A stretch of DNA of 64,000 bases, taken from contig JBFXHR010000004.1 of assembly GCA_050176815.1 (NCBI GenBank), positions 19,927-83,926 on the forward strand. The letters run 5' to 3'. The notes beneath the pieces were generated by a model, which was not told where the DNA came from, did not search any database, and worked only from the letters and a program-made list of their open reading frames with translations. Source of the stretch: Kiritimatiellia bacterium (GTDB lineage: Bacteria; Verrucomicrobiota; Kiritimatiellia; CAIQIC01; Lenti-01). The number at the start of each line of letters is the position of its first letter. Position 1 is the stretch's first letter. Below are positions 7,530 through 50,728 of the stretch, in pieces. The position numbers and the translations under genes are program-made.

Positions 7530-7600
7530 GCTACGGATTTCGCAGATGGCGCGGATTCGATCCCGAAACCCTTGGATTATCGATCCGCGCAATCCGTAGC
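7530..7600. repeat. palindromic hairpin repeat, copy 1 (GCTACGGATT...GCGCGGAT / ATCCGCGC...AATCCGTAGC)
   Basis: Internal inverted repeat with two stem modules; a second copy lies at 8020..8100 in the same orientation. Confidence 0.8.
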
Positions 7601-7623: not shown

Positions 7624-8007
7624 ATGGAACTGTTGTACAAAGAGATCACGGAACAGATCATCGGCGCGGCCTATGAGGTCTATCGTGTTTTGGGGTATGG
7701 ATTTCTTGAAAAAATCTACCAGCGGGCGATGGTGGTGGAATTGGAATTGCGCGGACTCATGGCTCAGCCCGAAGCCTCGGCCAAAGTGTTTTTCAAAGAC
7801 GTGTGCGTAGGCGACTATTCAGCGGACCTCTTTGTCGGGGAGAAGGTCGTTGTAGAGCTGAAAGTCGCGCGAGAACTGAATCCGGCGGATGAAGCGCAGT
7901 TGATCAACGAACTGCTGTCGACGAGACAGGAAGTGGGTATGCTCATCAACTTCGGACGCGCAGGTGTCCAATTCAAACGCGCAGTCAATCAACAGAACAA
8001 CGGATGA
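7624..8007 (+). CDS. GxxExxY protein (PD-(D/E)XK-fold, PDDEXK_3-like)
   Basis: 127 aa containing GAAYEVY (GxxExxY) and the conserved D/ELK motif. Local GC is lower than in flanking genes. Confidence 0.8.
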   Translation: MELLYKEITEQIIGAAYEVYRVLGYGFLEKIYQRAMVVELELRGLMAQPEASAKVFFKDVCVGDYSADLFVGEKVVVELKVARELNPADEAQLINELLSTRQEVGMLINFGRAGVQFKRAVNQQNNG

Positions 8008-8019
8008 TGATCGGGACAA

Positions 8020-8100
8020 GCTACGGATTTCGCGAATGGCGCGGATCGGAAATCTATTCAGGCCTTTAGATTGATCCGCGAAATCCGCGCAATCCGTAGC
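8020..8100. repeat. palindromic hairpin repeat, copy 2
   Basis: Shares the GCTACGGATTTCGC..ATGGCGCGGAT and ATCCGCGCAATCCGTAGC modules with copy 1. Confidence 0.8.
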
Positions 8101-33536: not shown

Positions 33537-34954
33537 GTTCATCCGGTCCCACGCTTTTTTGGTCGCGGCTTCCATCGGTTTCCGCCTGCCGCGAAGGCGG
33601 CAATCTCATCCTGTTCGACCCGGACCAAAGCCGGGAAAAGGTCGTCAATTCCACGGGGTTTGCGATCTGGAACGCCATGGATGGGGCGGCGCGGACGGAG
33701 GAACTGGCCGCGTCGCTGGCCCGCCAATGCGGAATTCCCCTTTCGGGGGACCTCCGCGCCGACGTCGCCGCGTTCGCGGAAGAGCTGCGGCGCGATGGCT
33801 TTGCCCTCGCATCCCCCGCGCCGGCGGCCCGGGTGGCTCCGGCGGAGAACTATTCCTGGATCCACGAAGCGCCGCGGAGCATGGATCTCTCCCTGACCGG
33901 CCGGTGCAATCTCCATTGCGACTACTGTTTCTACGCCGACGAAATGGCGGGACGGCGCGATCTCCCGGCCGAGAGATGGCTGGCCTTTTTCAGGGAATTG
34001 GAAGGGTTGGCCGTGCGAAGCTTGACGCTGAGCGGCGGCGAGCTTTTCATGCGGCCGGACCTGTGGCGGCTGATCGACGGCGTCGTGGACGCCCGCATGC
34101 GCTATTCGATCCTGACGAACGGGACGCTGATCGCGGATCAAACGATCGGCGAGTTCATGCGGGGAAGTCGCCGATCGAGGCTGGATTCAATCCAGGTCTC
34201 GATCGACGGATCCTGCGCGGAAATCCACGACGCTTCGCGCGGAAAAGGGAGTTTCGAAAAGGCCATCCGCGGGTTGCGCCGGCTGAAAGGCGCCGGTTTT
34301 CCAGCGACGGCCCGCGTGACGGTGAACCGGCACAACGTGGGCGATCTGGAAAACGCGGCGCGGTTGCTGCTGGACGACGTGGGACTGGCTCGGATCGGCA
34401 CCAACGACGCCATGCCCATGGGAACGGGCTGTTCGCGCCGGGAAGATATCGTGCTGGCGCCGGAACAACGGGTGCTCGCGATGAAAACGCTCGTGAACCT
34501 CGAACGGAAATATCCCGGGCGCATCCAGGCCTCGGCGGGGTCTCTCGCCCTTTGGCACATGTTCCGGGAAATGGAGGAGGCCAAGGCCGGGGGACGTAAA
34601 ACCCGGCGCTGGAAAATGGGGTGCCTGTCGTCGTGCGGGTGCATGTTCGCCAAGCTGGCGGTGCATCACGACGGCATGATCGTGCCGTGCAACATGCTGG
34701 CCGCGGCATCGCTGGGGACCATCGGCGAGACGCCGATCCGCGCCATTTGGCAGGATCATCCGCTGTTGAAGGAAATGCGCGGCCGGGGAAAGATTCCGAT
34801 GGAGCAAGTGCCCGGGTGCGCGGGATGCGAATGGGCGCCGTACTGCAGCGGCGGCTGCCCGGCGGCCGAATATGCCCGGACCGGCGACCTGTACCTGGCC
34901 AATCCGGAGTGCTGCTACCGGCGCTTCCTCGACGAATGCGGGGAATTGCCGTGA
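33533..34954 (+). CDS. radical SAM/SPASM-domain enzyme with N-terminal PqqD-like (RRE) domain
   Basis: ATGA overlap with the dehydratase gene. PqqD-like N-terminus (GNLILFDPD...NSTGFAIWNAMDG); CNLHCDYC radical SAM motif; C-terminal Cys-rich SPASM region (CGCMF...CAGCEWAPYCSGGCP). Confidence 0.8.
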   Translation: MSSSGPTLFWSRLPSVSACREGGNLILFDPDQSREKVVNSTGFAIWNAMDGAARTEELAASLARQCGIPLSGDLRADVAAFAEELRRDGFALASPAPAARVAPAENYSWIHEAPRSMDLSLTGRCNLHCDYCFYADEMAGRRDLPAERWLAFFRELEGLAVRSLTLSGGELFMRPDLWRLIDGVVDARMRYSILTNGTLIADQTIGEFMRGSRRSRLDSIQVSIDGSCAEIHDASRGKGSFEKAIRGLRRLKGAGFPATARVTVNRHNVGDLENAARLLLDDVGLARIGTNDAMPMGTGCSRREDIVLAPEQRVLAMKTLVNLERKYPGRIQASAGSLALWHMFREMEEAKAGGRKTRRWKMGCLSSCGCMFAKLAVHHDGMIVPCNMLAAASLGTIGETPIRAIWQDHPLLKEMRGRGKIPMEQVPGCAGCEWAPYCSGGCPAAEYARTGDLYLANPECCYRRFLDECGELP

Positions 34955-35568
34955 ACGAGCAACGGAATTCGAATATCCAACATCCAATATCCAATATCCC
35001 ATCTTCACGGGGAGACCTGCGGTATGCGCTGCGCGCGGACGTCGCGATCGAAGATTTCGGAGAGCGATCGCTCGTGCTGCGATGCGATGCGCTGGAGATG
35101 AGCGCGGTCAACGCGGGTGGACGGAAAATCCTGGCGCTGGTTGACGGGGGGCGGACGGTGGGGGATATTGCCGGGTCGGCAGGCCTGGCGATCGAAGACG
35201 TGCGGGCGGCGTTGCTGGAGATGGAGCGGCAAGGGATCGTGCGGCGAGTGGTGGATTTGAAGAAAGAAAGGCCGGAAAACATGGGCGAGGCGAAATATCT
35301 GGCGGATCCCGGCGTTTCCTTCCGGCCGGAGGATGGCGACGGCGCCATTCTGTACCACGCGGATACGGATTCGCTGGAGGTCGTCAATCCGGTGGCGGCG
35401 GAAATCTGGACGTATTTGGCCGCGCCGCGCACGCAGGCCGAGGTTGTCGCGCACTTGTGCGCGACGTGCGAGGGCGCCGTTCGGGACCAGGTCGAGAAAG
35501 ACGTGGCGGAGTTTGTCGAATCGCTCCTGGAAAAAGGCTTCATCGGCGTGGTGGAGGACCCCGCGTGA
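34951..35568 (+). CDS. tandem double PqqD-like (RRE) domain protein
   Basis: GTGA overlap. Two PqqD-like units (AIEDFGERSLVL...ILALVDGGRTVGDIA and DGDGAILYH...VNPVAAEIWTYLAAPRT). The N-terminus is encoded by an AAyATCC heptamer repeat. Confidence 0.6.
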   Translation: MNEQRNSNIQHPISNIPSSRGDLRYALRADVAIEDFGERSLVLRCDALEMSAVNAGGRKILALVDGGRTVGDIAGSAGLAIEDVRAALLEMERQGIVRRVVDLKKERPENMGEAKYLADPGVSFRPEDGDGAILYHADTDSLEVVNPVAAEIWTYLAAPRTQAEVVAHLCATCEGAVRDQVEKDVAEFVESLLEKGFIGVVEDPA

Positions 35569-42736: not shown

Positions 42737-43300
42737 TCAGAGGAGCTTGAGCAGAGCCGCCTGCACGGGGTGGGAGGCGGGGCGAAGAACGAACGTCTTT
42801 CCCTCTTTGGCCACCCAACCGGATTCCCGAAGGATACGAAGATGTTTTTTCAGGTTGTCGGGGCCGGTCCGGACGAGGTTCGCCAATTGGTCGGCGTCCC
42901 CAGGTTGCTGCAACAGGGCGCGGACGAGAGCGACGCGTCGCTCGCAGGCCAGGCCCTTGGCCAGCCGGGCGACCTCATCGATCCCGTTGCAGTTTCCGTT
43001 CCAGGCGGCCTGCAGCGCCTTGAGCAGGGGGGCGGCCGAAGGAACCTGTGGGTCGGGAATGGGCAGATAGACCACGGATGTGCCTGGACAGGAACGTTTG
43101 AAGAAACCGCGCGATTGCAGGCGGCGGAGCTCCTGGCTGGCATCGGAAATCCCGGTTCCCAGCCGTTCCGCCAGCTGGGAGACGTTGAGACCGGGCTGTT
43201 CGAGGACGTGGCGGAGCAGACCCAATCGCGTGCGGCCGGTCAAGACGCGGCAGGTTCGCCACAGGGTGGGGTTCAGTTGCTTCATGGCGGGTCCTTTCAT
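42737..43300 (-). CDS. ArsR/SmtB-like winged-helix transcriptional regulator
   Basis: N-terminal LWRTCRVLTGRTRLGLLRHVLEQPGLNVSQLAERLG HTH; 187 aa. Confidence 0.55.
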   Translation of the reverse strand: MKGPAMKQLNPTLWRTCRVLTGRTRLGLLRHVLEQPGLNVSQLAERLGTGISDASQELRRLQSRGFFKRSCPGTSVVYLPIPDPQVPSAAPLLKALQAAWNGNCNGIDEVARLAKGLACERRVALVRALLQQPGDADQLANLVRTGPDNLKKHLRILRESGWVAKEGKTFVLRPASHPVQAALLKLL

Positions 43301-43306
43301 CGGATT

Positions 43307-43381
43307 CCGGGTATTGTTTTATAAAACAATATCCGGATTGGCAATGGGAAACCGGGTACTGTTTTATAAAACAGTACCTGG
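43307..43381. promoter_or_regulatory. pair of 30-bp near-perfect palindromes (CCGGGTAyTGTTTTA|TAAAACArTAyCyGG), candidate operator sites
   Basis: Two palindromes with centres about 45 bp apart, immediately upstream of the regulator start codon. Coordinates are +/-2. Confidence 0.5.
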
Positions 43382-46289: not shown

Positions 46290-46817
46290 TCAGACATCGA
46301 ACAAGGACCAGCACTTTTTGTTGCGGCGTTTCTGGTCGTCGAGGACGAGGGCACGGATGGCGGCGGGCAGGCGGGCGCGCTGCCAGCGGCATTCGCGGCG
46401 GCCGGCGGCGTCGCGCTTGGCTTCGGGCGTTGCCGCGCGGACGGCGCGGATTGCATAGGCCGCCGCGCCCAGCTCGTGGTCGGCCATGTGCGCCACGGCG
46501 ACGGCGTGGCCGGCGGCGCGGGCGGCTTCCTTCGCGGCGCCGGGGGCCGCGCGGGCCGCGGCGTGCGCGGCATAGGCGGCCTCGCGGGCCTGCGTCATCG
46601 TGATTTTTTCCCGCGCCCAGGCGCGGGCCGCTTCGATCGCGCGCCGCGGCCGGGCGTCGCCGGGACGCGCCTGCTCGAACAGCGGCAGCACGCGCTCCGC
46701 GCACGCCGCCGCCCACGTCGCCAGCCGGCGGTGATCGGCGTCCACCAGCGTGCCGCCGCGCCGGAGGGTGATGAACCGCGGATCGCGCTTCGAAGCGAAG
46801 AGGATTTGGTTTTTCAT
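46290..46817 (-). CDS. hypothetical Ala-rich helical protein
   Basis: 175 aa; 4-nt overlap with the upstream GNAT gene. Confidence 0.4.
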   Translation of the reverse strand: MKNQILFASKRDPRFITLRRGGTLVDADHRRLATWAAACAERVLPLFEQARPGDARPRRAIEAARAWAREKITMTQAREAAYAAHAAARAAPGAAKEAARAAGHAVAVAHMADHELGAAAYAIRAVRAATPEAKRDAAGRRECRWQRARLPAAIRALVLDDQKRRNKKCWSLFDV

Positions 46818-47347
46818 CGTGCTCGGAGAACTTCAGGGTTTTGAGGCCGGGCGTCGGACTGGAGCAGGGCCATGCAGAGGGAATCTTCGGGGACGCCGTC
46901 GAGGCAGCGGGCTTGGCGTTTGCGGCCTTCTTCGACGAAGCCGAATTTGCGGTAGAGCGCGATGGCGCGGGCGTTGGCGGCGAAGACTTCCAGTTCGATC
47001 CGGGTCAGGCCTTTTTGGAAGGCGTCGGCGACGGTGGCTGCCAACAGGCGCGCGCCGATTTTTTGGCCGCGGTATTCGGGCAGGAGGCCGAGCCCGAGCC
47101 GGCCGACGTGCGTCAGGCCGGGGCGTTCGTCGCGGACGACGTCGCACCAGCCGACGACTTGGCCGTCGCGGACGGCATAGAACTGGCTCCAGCCCTTGGC
47201 GAGGACTTGGGCGATGAAGTTCCGGACGGATTCGAGCGGCGGGGCTTCCCGGAAGATCAGGTAGCGGTGCTCGCGGGCGACGACGTCCAGCGCCTGCCGG
47301 AAGCTATCGGCCAGGTCGCGGGTCGCGGGCTGGATGAGGATGTCCAT
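46814..47347 (-). CDS. GNAT-family N-acetyltransferase
   Basis: RGQKIGARLL acetyl-CoA-binding motif; 177 aa. Confidence 0.8.
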   Translation of the reverse strand: MDILIQPATRDLADSFRQALDVVAREHRYLIFREAPPLESVRNFIAQVLAKGWSQFYAVRDGQVVGWCDVVRDERPGLTHVGRLGLGLLPEYRGQKIGARLLAATVADAFQKGLTRIELEVFAANARAIALYRKFGFVEEGRKRQARCLDGVPEDSLCMALLQSDARPQNPEVLRAR

Positions 47348-47839
47348 GGGGCGGGGGGGCTTAGCATGTGAAAATCATAATCCGGCTAAAACTAAAAAAA
47401 GGGACCACAATATCCAATAACCAATATCCAAGGGGACTGCGAAACACGCGAAAAACGAGAAAAACGGCTTAAAACAGGCCAAAAACATCGAAATATGGCC
47501 TAAACACGGTCCCAAAAACGCAAAACGGACAAAATACATCGATTTTCGGCTGGAAAACACGAAAAAATTAGAAAAACAGGGTGGATTTAAGACTTTTCCT
47601 GCGCATTTCCTGTTTTCCTGCATATTTTCGGGTTTTGGACTGTGTTGGGCCGAAAAATGCCGAGTGGACGCTCGTCGATCCCCGGGGAGGGGGAGAGGAG
47701 GACGGAACATCCAACATCCAATGGCCAAAGTCCATTTTCCGGGGGAAGAGGCGGGGGGGCGGCATGAAAAAATTGGAATGAAGTGGACGGCGGAGCGTGG
47801 TAGGGTCGCGCATTCATTTTTTTGCAAAGGCGGCAGGCG
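47348..47839. promoter_or_regulatory. AT-rich intergenic island with phased A-tracts, heptamer repeats and a long imperfect inverted repeat
   Basis: Local GC is far below the window average. AAAAC tracts recur every 10-12 bp across 47440-47580, and their complement (TTTTCC) across 47590-47660. (AAyATCC)n repeats at 47408-47431 and 47706-47730. Confidence 0.5.
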
Positions 47840-50728
47840 ATGGCGGACAATTTCATCTTGGTGGAGGGGGCGCGGGAGCACAACCTCAAGAACATCACCG
47901 TGCGGATTCCGCGCGGCAGCCTGTGCGTGGTGACGGGGCTCAGCGGCAGCGGGAAGTCGTCGCTGGCGTTCGACACGCTCTACGCCGAGGGCCAGCGGAA
48001 GTACGTCGAGAGCCTGTCGTCCTTCGCGCGGATGTTCCTCGAACAGCTGCAGAAGCCGGACGTGGACCGCATCGAGGGGCTGTCGCCCGCGATCGCGATC
48101 GAGCAGCGGTCGGCGGGGTCGAATCCGCGGTCGATCGTGGCGACGACGACGGAGATCCACGACTACCTGCGCCTGCTCTATGCCAGCGTGGGGCACCAGC
48201 ACTGCCATAAATGCGGCAAGCCCATCGCGCGGCAGAGCGCGGAGGAGATCGTCAACCGGATCCTGAAGAAGCCCGAAGGCGCGAAGGTGCAGCTCTTGGC
48301 GCCGCTGGTGGAGGGGCGCAAGGGCGAGCACGCGGAGATCTTCGATTCGGCGCGGCGGCTGGGGTTCACGCGCGTGCAGATCGACGGGGAGATGTTCGAT
48401 CTGGAAAAGCCGCCGAAGCTGGACAAGCAGAAGAAGCATTCCATCGCGGTGGTGGTGGACCGGTTGGTCATCAACGACAAGGTACGGGGGCGGCTGACGG
48501 ATTCGGTGGAGCTGGCGCTGAAGCAGGGCGAGGGGGTGCTGAACGCGCTGTTCCAGGAGCCGGGCGCGGGCGAGGCGTGGACGCCGCAGATGTTTTCCGA
48601 GAAGAACGCGTGCGCGGATTGCGGGATCAGCTTCGATGCGCTCCTGGCGCGGAATTTTTCGTTCAACAGCCCGTACGGGGCGTGCCCGACGTGCGACGGC
48701 TTGGGGCAGATGCTGGTGTTCGACGAGGATCTGGTGGTGCCGGACCCGACGAAGTCCATCGATTCGGGCGCGATCGCGGCCTGGCGCCCGGCGGGGCGGC
48801 GGGAGGCGATTTACCGCAAGGGGCTGCTGCGGGCGCTGGCGAAGCACCTCGGGTTCGATCTCGGCACGCCGTGGGAAGAACTGCCGGAAAAGGTCCGCCA
48901 GGTCATCCTGCACGGCTCGGGCGAGGAGGACGTCGAGCTGGGCTTCTGGATGCGCGGGGCGTGGCGGAAGTACAGCAAGCCGTTCGAGGGCGTGATTCCG
49001 AACCTGCAGCGGCGCTATACGGAGTCGGACAGCGACTACATCAAGCAGAAACTGGCGGGCTTCATGAGCCGCCTGCCGTGCACGGGCTGCGGCGGGAAGC
49101 GCCTGCGCCCGGAGAGCCTCGCCTGCCGCGTGGCGGGCAAGGGCATCATGGACGTGATGGAATTCTCGGCGCGCGACGCGGCGGCGTTTTTCGCGGACCT
49201 GCCGCTGTCCGAGCAGGAAAACAAGATTGCGGCGGAGGTGCTGAAGGAAATCCGCAAGCGGCTGCGGTTCCTGTGCGACGTGGGGCTGGGCTACCTGAAT
49301 TTGAACCGCGAGAGCGGGACGCTCTCCGGCGGCGAGGCGCAGCGCATCCGGCTGGCGACGCAGGTGGGCGCGGGGCTGGTGGGCGTGCTGTACGTGCTGG
49401 ACGAGCCAAGCATCGGTTTGCACCAGCGCGACAACGAAAAGCTGCTGCGGACGCTGAAGGGCCTGCGCGACCTGGGCAACACGGTGGTCGTGGTCGAGCA
49501 CGACGAGCAGACGATCCGCGAGGCGGACTACGTCATCGACCTCGGGCCGGCGGCGGGCGTGCACGGCGGGGAAGTCGTCTTTGCCGGCACGGTGCCGGAC
49601 CTGCTGAAGTCGACAGCATCGCTGACCGCGCAGTTCCTGAACGGCGAAAAGAAGATCGACGTCCCGCACGATCGCCAGGCGCCGGGCGAGGCGTGGCTGG
49701 AGATCTTCGGCGCGGCGGAAAACAACTTGAAGAATATCGACGTGCGCTTTCCGCTGGGGCGGATCTCGTGCGTGACGGGCGTGTCGGGCAGCGGCAAGAG
49801 CACGCTGGTGGACGACATCCTGCGGCGGGCGCTGTTCCGGAAATTCTACGGGTCGAAAGACAAACCTGGCAAGCACAAGAAGATCGCCGGGATGCAGCAT
49901 CTCGACAAGGTGATCGTGATCGACCAGTCGCCCATCGGGCGGACGCCGCGGTCGAATCCGGCGACGTACACGGGCGCGTTCAACGCGATCCGCGACCTGT
50001 TCACGCAGCTGCCGGGCTCGAAAATGCGCGGCTACAAGCCGGGGCGGTTCAGCTTCAACGTCAAGGGCGGCCGCTGCGAGAAGTGCAAGGGCGACGGCAT
50101 CCTGAAGATCGAGATGAACTTCCTGCCGGACGTCTACGTGACCTGCGAGCAGTGCCGCGGGCGGCGCTACAACCAGGAAACGCTGGAAGTGAAGTGGCGC
50201 GGCAAGAGCATCGCCGACGTGCTGGACATGACGATCGCCGAGGCGCTGGAGTTTTTCGCGCCGGTGCCGACGATCGCGCGCAAGTTCCAGACGATGAGCG
50301 AGGTCGGGCTGGGTTACCTGAAGGTGGGCCAGCCGGCGACGACGCTCTCCGGCGGCGAGGCGCAGCGCATGAAGCTGAGCGCGGAACTGGCGCGGCGCGA
50401 CACGGGCCAGACCTTGTATCTGCTCGACGAGCCGACGACGGGGCTGCATTTCGCGGACGTGGACCGGCTGCTGAAGGTGCTGCTGCGGCTGCGGGACGCG
50501 GGCAACAGCCTGATCGTGATCGAACACAATCTCGACGTGGTCAAGACGGCCGACTACATTGTGGATCTGGGACCGGAAGGCGGCGACGAAGGCGGCCGCG
50601 TGGTGGCCTGCGGCTCGCCGGAGGAAATCGCGGCGAACCCGGCCTCGCACACGGGCGAGTATTTGCGGCCGATGCTGGCGCCGCCGGCCCCGAAACCGGC
50701 CAAGGCGAAGCGGACAAAGAAAAAATGA
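47840..50728 (+). CDS. uvrA: excinuclease ABC subunit A
   Basis: [19 protein letters not shown]; two ABC ATPase modules with Walker [10 protein letters not shown] and GVSGSGKST; zinc-finger Cys motifs. Confidence 0.95.

Follow-up and report, generated by a model that had tools for sequence, protein, structure and literature searches.

A long lattice of helically phased A/T-tracts upstream of a GNAT acetyltransferase gene in Kiritimatiellia

The GNAT-uvrA spacer and its phased tracts

In the window (the whole 64-kb stretch of DNA that was analysed), a non-coding spacer separates a gene for a GNAT-family N-acetyltransferase from the divergently oriented uvrA gene (Table 1). The GNAT protein is identical to P0121 of an NCBI Kiritimatiellia MAG, and no specific NCBIfam equivalog matched it above its cut-off; the UvrA homologues with 82-94% identity carry Kiritimatiellia labels, and an exact look-up found no record of the window's own UvrA. 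The product of the gene 3' of GNAT (46290-46817) is a putative Imm5-like immunity protein (Pfam E 1e-38), and an 83-aa ORF is found at its position in relatives. A sequence-only reading of the window had described the spacer as an AT-rich island. The GC minimum of the window, 0.36 versus a mean of 0.652, does lie here, at 47321-47680, but the right third of the spacer (47660-47839) has a GC content of 56-59% and falls outside the island. The open reading frames inside the island, which had been dismissed as artefacts, can indeed be judged as such, because the region is rearranged between close relatives and no frame is kept.

Table 1. Features of the spacer and its flanking genes, in window coordinates
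Feature	Coordinates	Strand	Description and basis
GNAT-family N-acetyltransferase gene	46814-47347	minus	177 aa; Pfam Acetyltransf_1, E 3e-18
GNAT/uvrA spacer	47348-47839		492 bp, non-coding; flanking genes assigned by Pfam
Putative GNAT -10 hexamer	47374-47379	minus	TATGAT, 26 nt upstream of ATG; read from sequence
Left heptad array	47408-47431	plus	CAATATC CAATAAC CAATATC CAA; TRF period 7, pattern search
A-tract arm	47442-47580	plus	13 A-tracts (A3-A6, mostly followed by C) and one T-tract at 47543
Best inner inverted repeat	47549-47564 / 47606-47621		GCTGGAAAACACGAAA / TTTCCTGTTTTCCTGC, 16 nt, 88%; repeat search
T-tract arm	47586-47657	plus	six T-tracts (47586-47636) in TTTTCCTG-type units and a terminal A5 at 47653
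Remnant of 810-aa ORF 3' end (tentative)	47661-47682	minus	~20 aligned bases; gene order in L091 and L083/L093
Right heptad array	47705-47739	plus	GAACATC CAACATC CAATGGC CAAAGTC CATTTTC; TRF period 7, direct repeat, pattern search
uvrA-proximal block	47745-47839	plus	common with relatives; holds extended -10-like TGGTAGGGT
uvrA	47840-50728	plus	962 aa, ATG at 47840; Pfam UvrA_inter and UvrA_DNA-bind

On the GNAT side, a TAnnAT hexamer (TATGAT, TAATAT or TACTAT) occurs at the same place in all relatives and may be the -10 element of the GNAT promoter. The sigma-70 consensus scan found no promoter at the locus; at this hexamer it was negative because no -35 match exists. On the other side, the extended -10-like sequence at 47798-47806, 33 nt ahead of the uvrA ATG, is a putative -10 element of the uvrA promoter, and CGTGGTAGG(G/T)T and a TTGG(G/A)AT-GAAG block near uvrA are common to three relatives (L082, L083 and L084). 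The scan for terminator consensus sequences returned one terminator-like site, 47795-47811, which overlaps this uvrA block. An SOS box was also considered for uvrA: CTGT-N8-ACAG-like palindromes occur at 43312-43376, and nothing similar lies near uvrA. These are two perfect 20-bp palindromes, TATTGTTTTATAAAACAATA and TACTGTTTTATAAAACAGTA, at 43312-43331 and 43357-43376, 45 bp apart. They stand directly upstream of the minus-strand gene of a 187-aa double winged-helix (ArsR/MarR-like) regulator (42737-43300), which is not lexA, and are probably operators of the regulator itself.

The segment 47442-47657 (~220 bp, non-coding) contains 21 A/T-tracts on a 10.15-10.2-bp lattice, corresponding to ~22 helical turns. 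In the A-tract arm, the starts of the A-tracts run from 47442 to 47572 and the spacers are GC-rich and 3-9 nt long; the T-tract arm keeps the same 10.2-bp lattice. The AA-dinucleotide Fourier spectrum of 47437-47580 peaks at 10.0-10.2 bp, a signal matched by none of 2000 shuffles, and when AA periodicity was scanned over the 64-kb window, the top 23 scanning windows all fell inside the array region. The proposal that GAAAAAC-like A-tracts recur at about helical periodicity over 47440-47580 is borne out, and theirs is the strongest such signal of the window. The 21 tract centres follow the 10.2-bp lattice with a vector strength R of 0.79, which 0.4% of spacing permutations equalled or bettered, and short and long tract spacings offset each other (lag-1 autocorrelation -0.52). 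When the sequence is folded on the lattice, the A+T fraction falls from 1.00 at the peak to 0.13 at the trough, and the spacers have a genome-like GC content of 67%. The A-tract arm contains internal repeats of 51 bp and 102 bp, and TRF finds only weak, short tandem arrays with periods of 9 and 11 (scores 35-42).

Since A/T-runs recur once per helical turn, the array is expected to be sharply bent. In a dinucleotide wedge model, its 140-bp ratio of end-to-end distance to contour length is 0.553, compared with a window mean of 0.973 (sd 0.029) and with 0.831 for the next-best site elsewhere in the window, which places the array ~14 sd from the mean. The model gives a summed bend of ~283 degrees with slight left-handed writhe, and a local bend of 37-53 degrees per 31 bp at 47610-47650; the wedge table was of the Bolshoy type, and absolute angles and handedness depend on the model. 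A single A-tract bends DNA by ~18 degrees. The corresponding model-free estimate, 21 tracts x R 0.79 x ~18 degrees, is ~300 degrees, in agreement with the wedge model. Curvature from helically phased A-tracts had been predicted from the letters of the sequence, and both the curvature calculation and the lattice uphold it. These results show an unusually long array, phased far beyond chance, that is predicted to be textbook intrinsically bent DNA.

The same region had been read as one long imperfect inverted repeat. Inverted-repeat arms do exist (11-20 nt, 75-91% complementary), but they have no common centre, and the fold of 47430-47670 is barely above that of shuffled sequences (z -2.0 as DNA, with 8/200 shuffles as good; z -1.1 as RNA, with 26/200 as good). 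The only stem common with relatives is the 7-bp CAGGAAA/TTTCCTG.

Two heptad arrays accompany the lattice. The left one sits between the GNAT -10 and the A-tract lattice; five to six heptads are present at its position in L093, L095 and L096, and none in L087, L091 and L092. A stretch similar to the right one was found in L084. CAAYATC heptad arrays (3-5 direct repeats) gave 7 pattern matches in the window versus 0.4 expected, and in the related loci they occur only upstream of GNAT. They may be binding sites of a regulator. A third array of this kind, at 34971-35001, lies in a short gap after an ORF ending at 34954, just before the next reading frame.

The array in related loci

An array stands directly upstream of GNAT orthologues with 76-85% amino acid identity in L087-L090, L091, L092, L093, L095 and L096. 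Seven related GNAT loci carry homologous or rebuilt arrays, and the period is 10.1-10.3 bp in every one, whereas the order of the modules and the length vary (142-381 bp, 13-34 tracts). The lattice R of these seven arrays is 0.64-0.85; five are tighter than their own permuted spacings (p 0.004-0.032), and the lattices of L087 and L096 are not distinguishable from them (p 0.27 and 0.10, respectively). The wedge model gives them a minimum end-to-end ratio of 0.26-0.66 and a summed bend of 210-410 degrees. Each of the seven has a negative mean writhe term, meaning a left-handed path; the value is clear for four arrays but close to zero for L095 and L096. Over the 83 kb of sequence from related loci, the periodic signal was confined to the region upstream of GNAT, and the maximum power in ~960 kb of other bacteria was 3.25 versus 6-7.5 in these arrays.

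The part that can be aligned straightforwardly is limited to 47435-47519, which is 88% identical to L091 and L087. Beyond it, the arrays are composed of modules, namely CAAYATC heptads, 9-bp GCAAAAGG units, 10-bp CGAAAAAC-type units, CAGGAAAA units and the complements TTTTCCTG and CTTTTGCG, the order and copy number of which differ among relatives. L093 has a 141-bp duplication, and the homologous TTTTCCTG module is found in L093 (twice), L095 and L096. Four-fold degenerate sites of GNAT are 82-90% identical among relatives, indicating low neutral divergence, so the 88% identity of the array core needs no selection to account for it. In an alignment of four sequences, 9/37 A-tract columns and 17/43 spacer columns were variable, a difference that is not significant (p 0.16). 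The GNAT gene itself diverges unusually fast: between the window and L084, L087 and L091-L096, amino acid identity is 0.76-0.85 while identity at four-fold sites is 0.82-0.90, which amounts to a high dN/dS. The UvrA proteins of these lineages are 91-94% identical.

The array is absent from a 77% GNAT orthologue (L175/L176, 120-bp spacer) and from a 64% orthologue (L177). In L084, a hairpin of ACGGAT units (~2230-2345) stands in its place. Similar hairpin units are present elsewhere in the window, where two ~75-bp hairpin repeats (GCTACGGATTTCGC...GCGCGGAT / ATCCGCGCAATCCGTAGC; 7530-7600 and 8020-8100) bracket an ORF (7624-8007) for a 127-aa PD-(D/E)XK protein (PDDEXK_3, GxxExxY-type, Pfam E 6e-35); the ACGGAT-like hairpins may belong to a dispersed hairpin-repeat family or a small cassette. 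In L094, the array seems to be interrupted by an insertion, and the ORF after it starts with MKTTSLDLRKRILATYDSGKETR, which we take to resemble the N terminus of an IS630-type transposase. Many of the contigs that carry a GNAT orthologue either measure less than 1.5 kb or stop 200-340 bp upstream of the gene (L087-L090, L094 and others), so assemblies tend to break at or beside the array.

The uvrA gene of relatives has other neighbours and an upstream region free of the array in all five loci compared (L082, L083, L084, L085 and L086). A different gene precedes uvrA across a 156-bp spacer in L082 (UvrA 94% identical), the spacer is 324 bp long and has no tracts in L083 (93%), and it measures 87 bp in L085 and L086 (92%). 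The best match in a genome-contig search with UvrA was only 67% identical and had no array, and is uninformative for this comparison. L082, the relative with the 94% identical UvrA, contains at 2290-2410, between a PGI gene and a 134-aa ORF, four TTTTCCAC-N3/4-GTGGAAAA palindromes with ~30-bp spacing, bracketed by GGCTCGA/TCGAGCC. In L091, L092 and L093, an 810-aa ORF runs in the same direction as GNAT, and the array sits in the gap between its stop codon and GNAT; L093 is on the same contig as L083, and the 810-aa ORF there separates GNAT from uvrA. A possible remnant of the 3' end of this ORF follows the array in the window, where CGAGTGGACGC-TCGTCGAT aligns with CGGGCGAGGGCATCGTCGAT of L091, L092 and L093. 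From this comparison, the ancestral place of the array appears to be between the 810-aa ORF and GNAT, with the ORF deleted in the present genome. Because the ORF has apparently been lost (remnant at 47661-47682), the adjacency of the array and uvrA is probably derived. As judged by gene order, the array is a part of the GNAT upstream region in one Kiritimatiellia clade and does not belong to uvrA.

With respect to GNAT, the array starts ~60 bp from the -10-like hexamer and spans about -60 to -285. Across the seven loci, the first tract is 39-79 bp from the centre of the hexamer, and the rotational phase at which the eight proximal tracts face the hexamer is scattered (R 0.17). The lack of a conserved phase argues against a helix-face-specific activator.

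Interpretation of the array

Our tentative reading, to which we assign a probability of about 0.45, is that the array is a bent-DNA module which grew by in-register duplications and acts on local DNA architecture as a preformed loop. Its growth would have involved tandem duplications of 51, 102 and 141 bp, all near whole helical turns, together with inverted duplications of a ~10-bp A4-5-containing unit, and such a history would account both for the raggedness of the inverted repeats and for the change from A- to T-tracts. The array would act as DNA, not as RNA, forming a loop between the end of the upstream gene and the GNAT promoter; in the present genome, a deletion would have put the uvrA promoter region in place of that upstream gene. 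The loop could favour wrapping round a protein or the siting of a supercoil tip, and it could set the local topology or insulate GNAT, making no contact with RNA polymerase on a fixed helix face. This explanation is supported by the period, the lattice and the alternation of AT and GC, which are far beyond chance and unique in the window, as well as by the predicted curvature and the failure of the RNA readings discussed below. It also counts for it that the shape is kept although the seven arrays use different units (GCAAAAGG, CGAAAAAC, CAGGAAAA and their complements). A nucleoid-protein-bound regulatory region, a candidate named from the sequence beforehand, is compatible with the data.

Against a functional loop, slippage between 10-bp units would by itself yield in-phase duplications. 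The array has been lost in the 77% and 64% orthologues, replaced in L084 and probably cut in L094, its A-tracts show no excess conservation (p 0.16), and its phase to the hexamer is not fixed (R 0.17). The serious rival is therefore a functionless, self-propagating array, a ~10-bp A-tract minisatellite that would expand, contract and invert by slippage and hairpin-mediated recombination and persist by descent, with curvature as a by-product; we consider it a real possibility. The losses and replacements, the unconserved tracts and the free phase all agree with it, as do the large rearrangements at very low neutral divergence and the variation in unit and module number among relatives. However, the spacers within each array are randomised in sequence and length (3-9 nt), yet all lattice peaks are A/T and the spacers are 67% GC, a pattern that a uniformly decaying repeat would not leave. 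The same non-integer period (10.1-10.25 bp) is common to different types of unit, the tracts hold the lattice better than permuted spacings do, and the weak and short tandem arrays found by TRF also speak against a minisatellite. If the constancy of shape were due to selection in the Kiritimatiellia clade, the array might be a dedicated wrapping or positioning sequence, with about one left-handed superhelical turn and a nucleosome-like 10.2-bp period, which seats a histone-like or toroidally wrapping protein or pins the tip of a supercoil and serves as a topological insulator between two co-directional genes. Such a role is unlikely, but it would give bacteria an equivalent of the positioning sequences of eukaryotes, one defined through its shape and not its sequence. 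A somewhat less probable proposal is an iteron-like platform, in which a protein would read RAAAAAC-type units, one per turn on one helix face, and oligomerise or wrap, with the heptads as sites of a second factor. In agreement with this proposal, the direct repeats are strand-specific and show a conserved A4-5C core once per turn, and heptad arrays flank the lattice and recur at 34971-35001; however, the unit sequence varies between modules and relatives, no linked gene for a candidate binding protein was found, and the heptads are absent in L087, L091 and L092.

The tracts are strongly strand-asymmetric, and in relatives the array immediately follows the stop codon of a gene with the same orientation; both would suit an element acting as RNA, be it a small RNA, a GNAT leader or the 3' UTR of the gene upstream. 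Such an element, built of A-/U-rich repeats and hairpins, might serve as a protein sponge or a stack of terminators. Significant hairpins form in L092 (z -5.0, with a 45-bp outer stem), L093 (z -3.8) and L095 (z -4.0), but the value is -0.8 in L091 and, for the RNA fold, just -1.1 in the window. The Rfam scan of 47200-48000 with E up to 10 gave only chance hits (best E 1.5, far below the gathering score), RNAalifold found no covariation among the relatives (consensus -6.2 kcal/mol, with a positive covariation term of +0.8), and consensus scans placed no promoter- or terminator-like site inside the array. With no Rfam family matched, no covariation and hairpins inconsistent among relatives, the small RNA suggested by the sequence-only reading was not upheld, and an RNA-level element of any kind is improbable. 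It is even less probable that the array is a mobile insertion, such as a decayed MITE, or that it serves a plasmid or chromosome as origin or partition site. In favour, a 45-bp inverted repeat with the ends TTAACGCAAAAG / CTTTTGCGTTAA encloses the array of L092, contigs often break at the array, and an IS-like ORF abuts it in L094. Nevertheless, the bounding arms do not pair in L087, L091 and L093 and are weak in the window, and the array is confined to a single locus in 147 kb of this lineage (the 64-kb window plus 83 kb of related loci). No match was obtained in viral contigs, plasmids or phages: the pattern scans of viral contigs gave 0 and 2 matches, the two being chance occurrences in unrelated sequence, and blastn against plasmids and phages gave none, although its low-complexity filter may hide weak similarity. 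These results do not support the suggestion of a decayed MITE. An origin is opposed by the absence of DnaA boxes (TTATCCACA-like) from the array region and of a GC-skew switch from the window, where the skew is positive throughout, and no rep or par genes lie nearby. Finally, the array had been proposed to act on the uvrA promoter as a UP-like element or as a curved activator from upstream, and in the present genome it does end ~140 bp upstream of the uvrA -10-like element. The comparison of relatives largely refutes this proposal and leaves it hardly any probability: the 87-324-bp regions upstream of uvrA in relatives with 91-94% identical UvrA contain no array, every array found is upstream of GNAT, and the adjacency to uvrA is probably the product of the deletion. 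Membership among UP elements or curved activators was rejected on two observations, the tracts occupying no fixed helix face (R 0.17) and L082-L086 showing no association with uvrA.

Comparison with known systems

A-tract clusters and curved intergenic DNA have been described in prokaryotes (Tolstorukov et al. 2005, Bolshoy and Nevo 2000, and Kozobay-Avraham et al. 2006, as cited in PMC4761138 and PMC3940949). The clusters are given as ~100 bp long and have been proposed to lie at the apexes of nucleoid loops (PMC4761138), and what helically phased A-tracts do in bacteria has been called unclear (PMC3940949, PMC3431218). The clusters resemble our array in being short A/T runs phased with the helical repeat, non-coding, near the starts or ends of genes and predicted to bend; they differ in being ~100 bp long, statistical and genome-wide, with a period nearer 11 bp. 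The present array, in contrast, is found at a single locus, extends over 220-380 bp with 100% A/T peaks at 10.15-10.25 bp in a genome of 65% GC, belongs with one gene, and is rebuilt from different units in relatives.

The classic curved DNA is the bent helix of kinetoplast minicircles, in which A5-6 runs on one strand recur about every 10 bp over 100-200 bp with GC-containing spacers. It shares the phased A-runs with our array but comes from a eukaryotic organelle and has no sequence relationship to it, and the tracts described here, unlike those of the kinetoplast helix, change from one strand to the other at inverted duplications. UP elements and upstream curved activators of sigma-70 promoters act from -40 to about -100 in a helix-face-dependent manner. 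They are likewise A/T-tract DNA upstream of a promoter without a good -35, whereas our array reaches from about -60 to -285 and keeps no constant phase to the -10-like hexamer. In the PATCs of C. elegans and in nucleosome-positioning sequences, long runs of A/T clusters are phased at ~10 bp, and DNA that follows a left-handed toroidal path is expected to have a 10.2-bp period; the likeness lies in the ~10-bp phasing, and these systems are eukaryotic and histone-based. To our knowledge, no wrapping protein is known for the present lineage. MITEs, REPs and other hairpin repeats are, like the array, AT-rich, intergenic and assembly-breaking, with imperfect inverted repeats, but the array is confined to one locus, has no target-site duplication, consists of 10-bp units, and its inverted repeats are not conserved.

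Most evidence on bacterial phased A-tracts consists of genome-wide statistics, and the present case is single, extreme and fixed to one locus in a high-GC member of a poorly studied phylum. As the units are reshuffled among close relatives while the 10.2-bp lattice persists, the clade offers a natural test of whether DNA shape is selected and of what binds the loop; if the array is a neutral repeat, it is a warning that slippage alone builds near-perfect curved DNA. Tested as a UP element, a structured RNA, a MITE or a replication origin, the array did not qualify. Set beside the known systems, it is an extreme variant of curved A-tract DNA, from which it differs in its length, the fidelity of its lattice, its period, its tie to one locus and the turnover of its modules.
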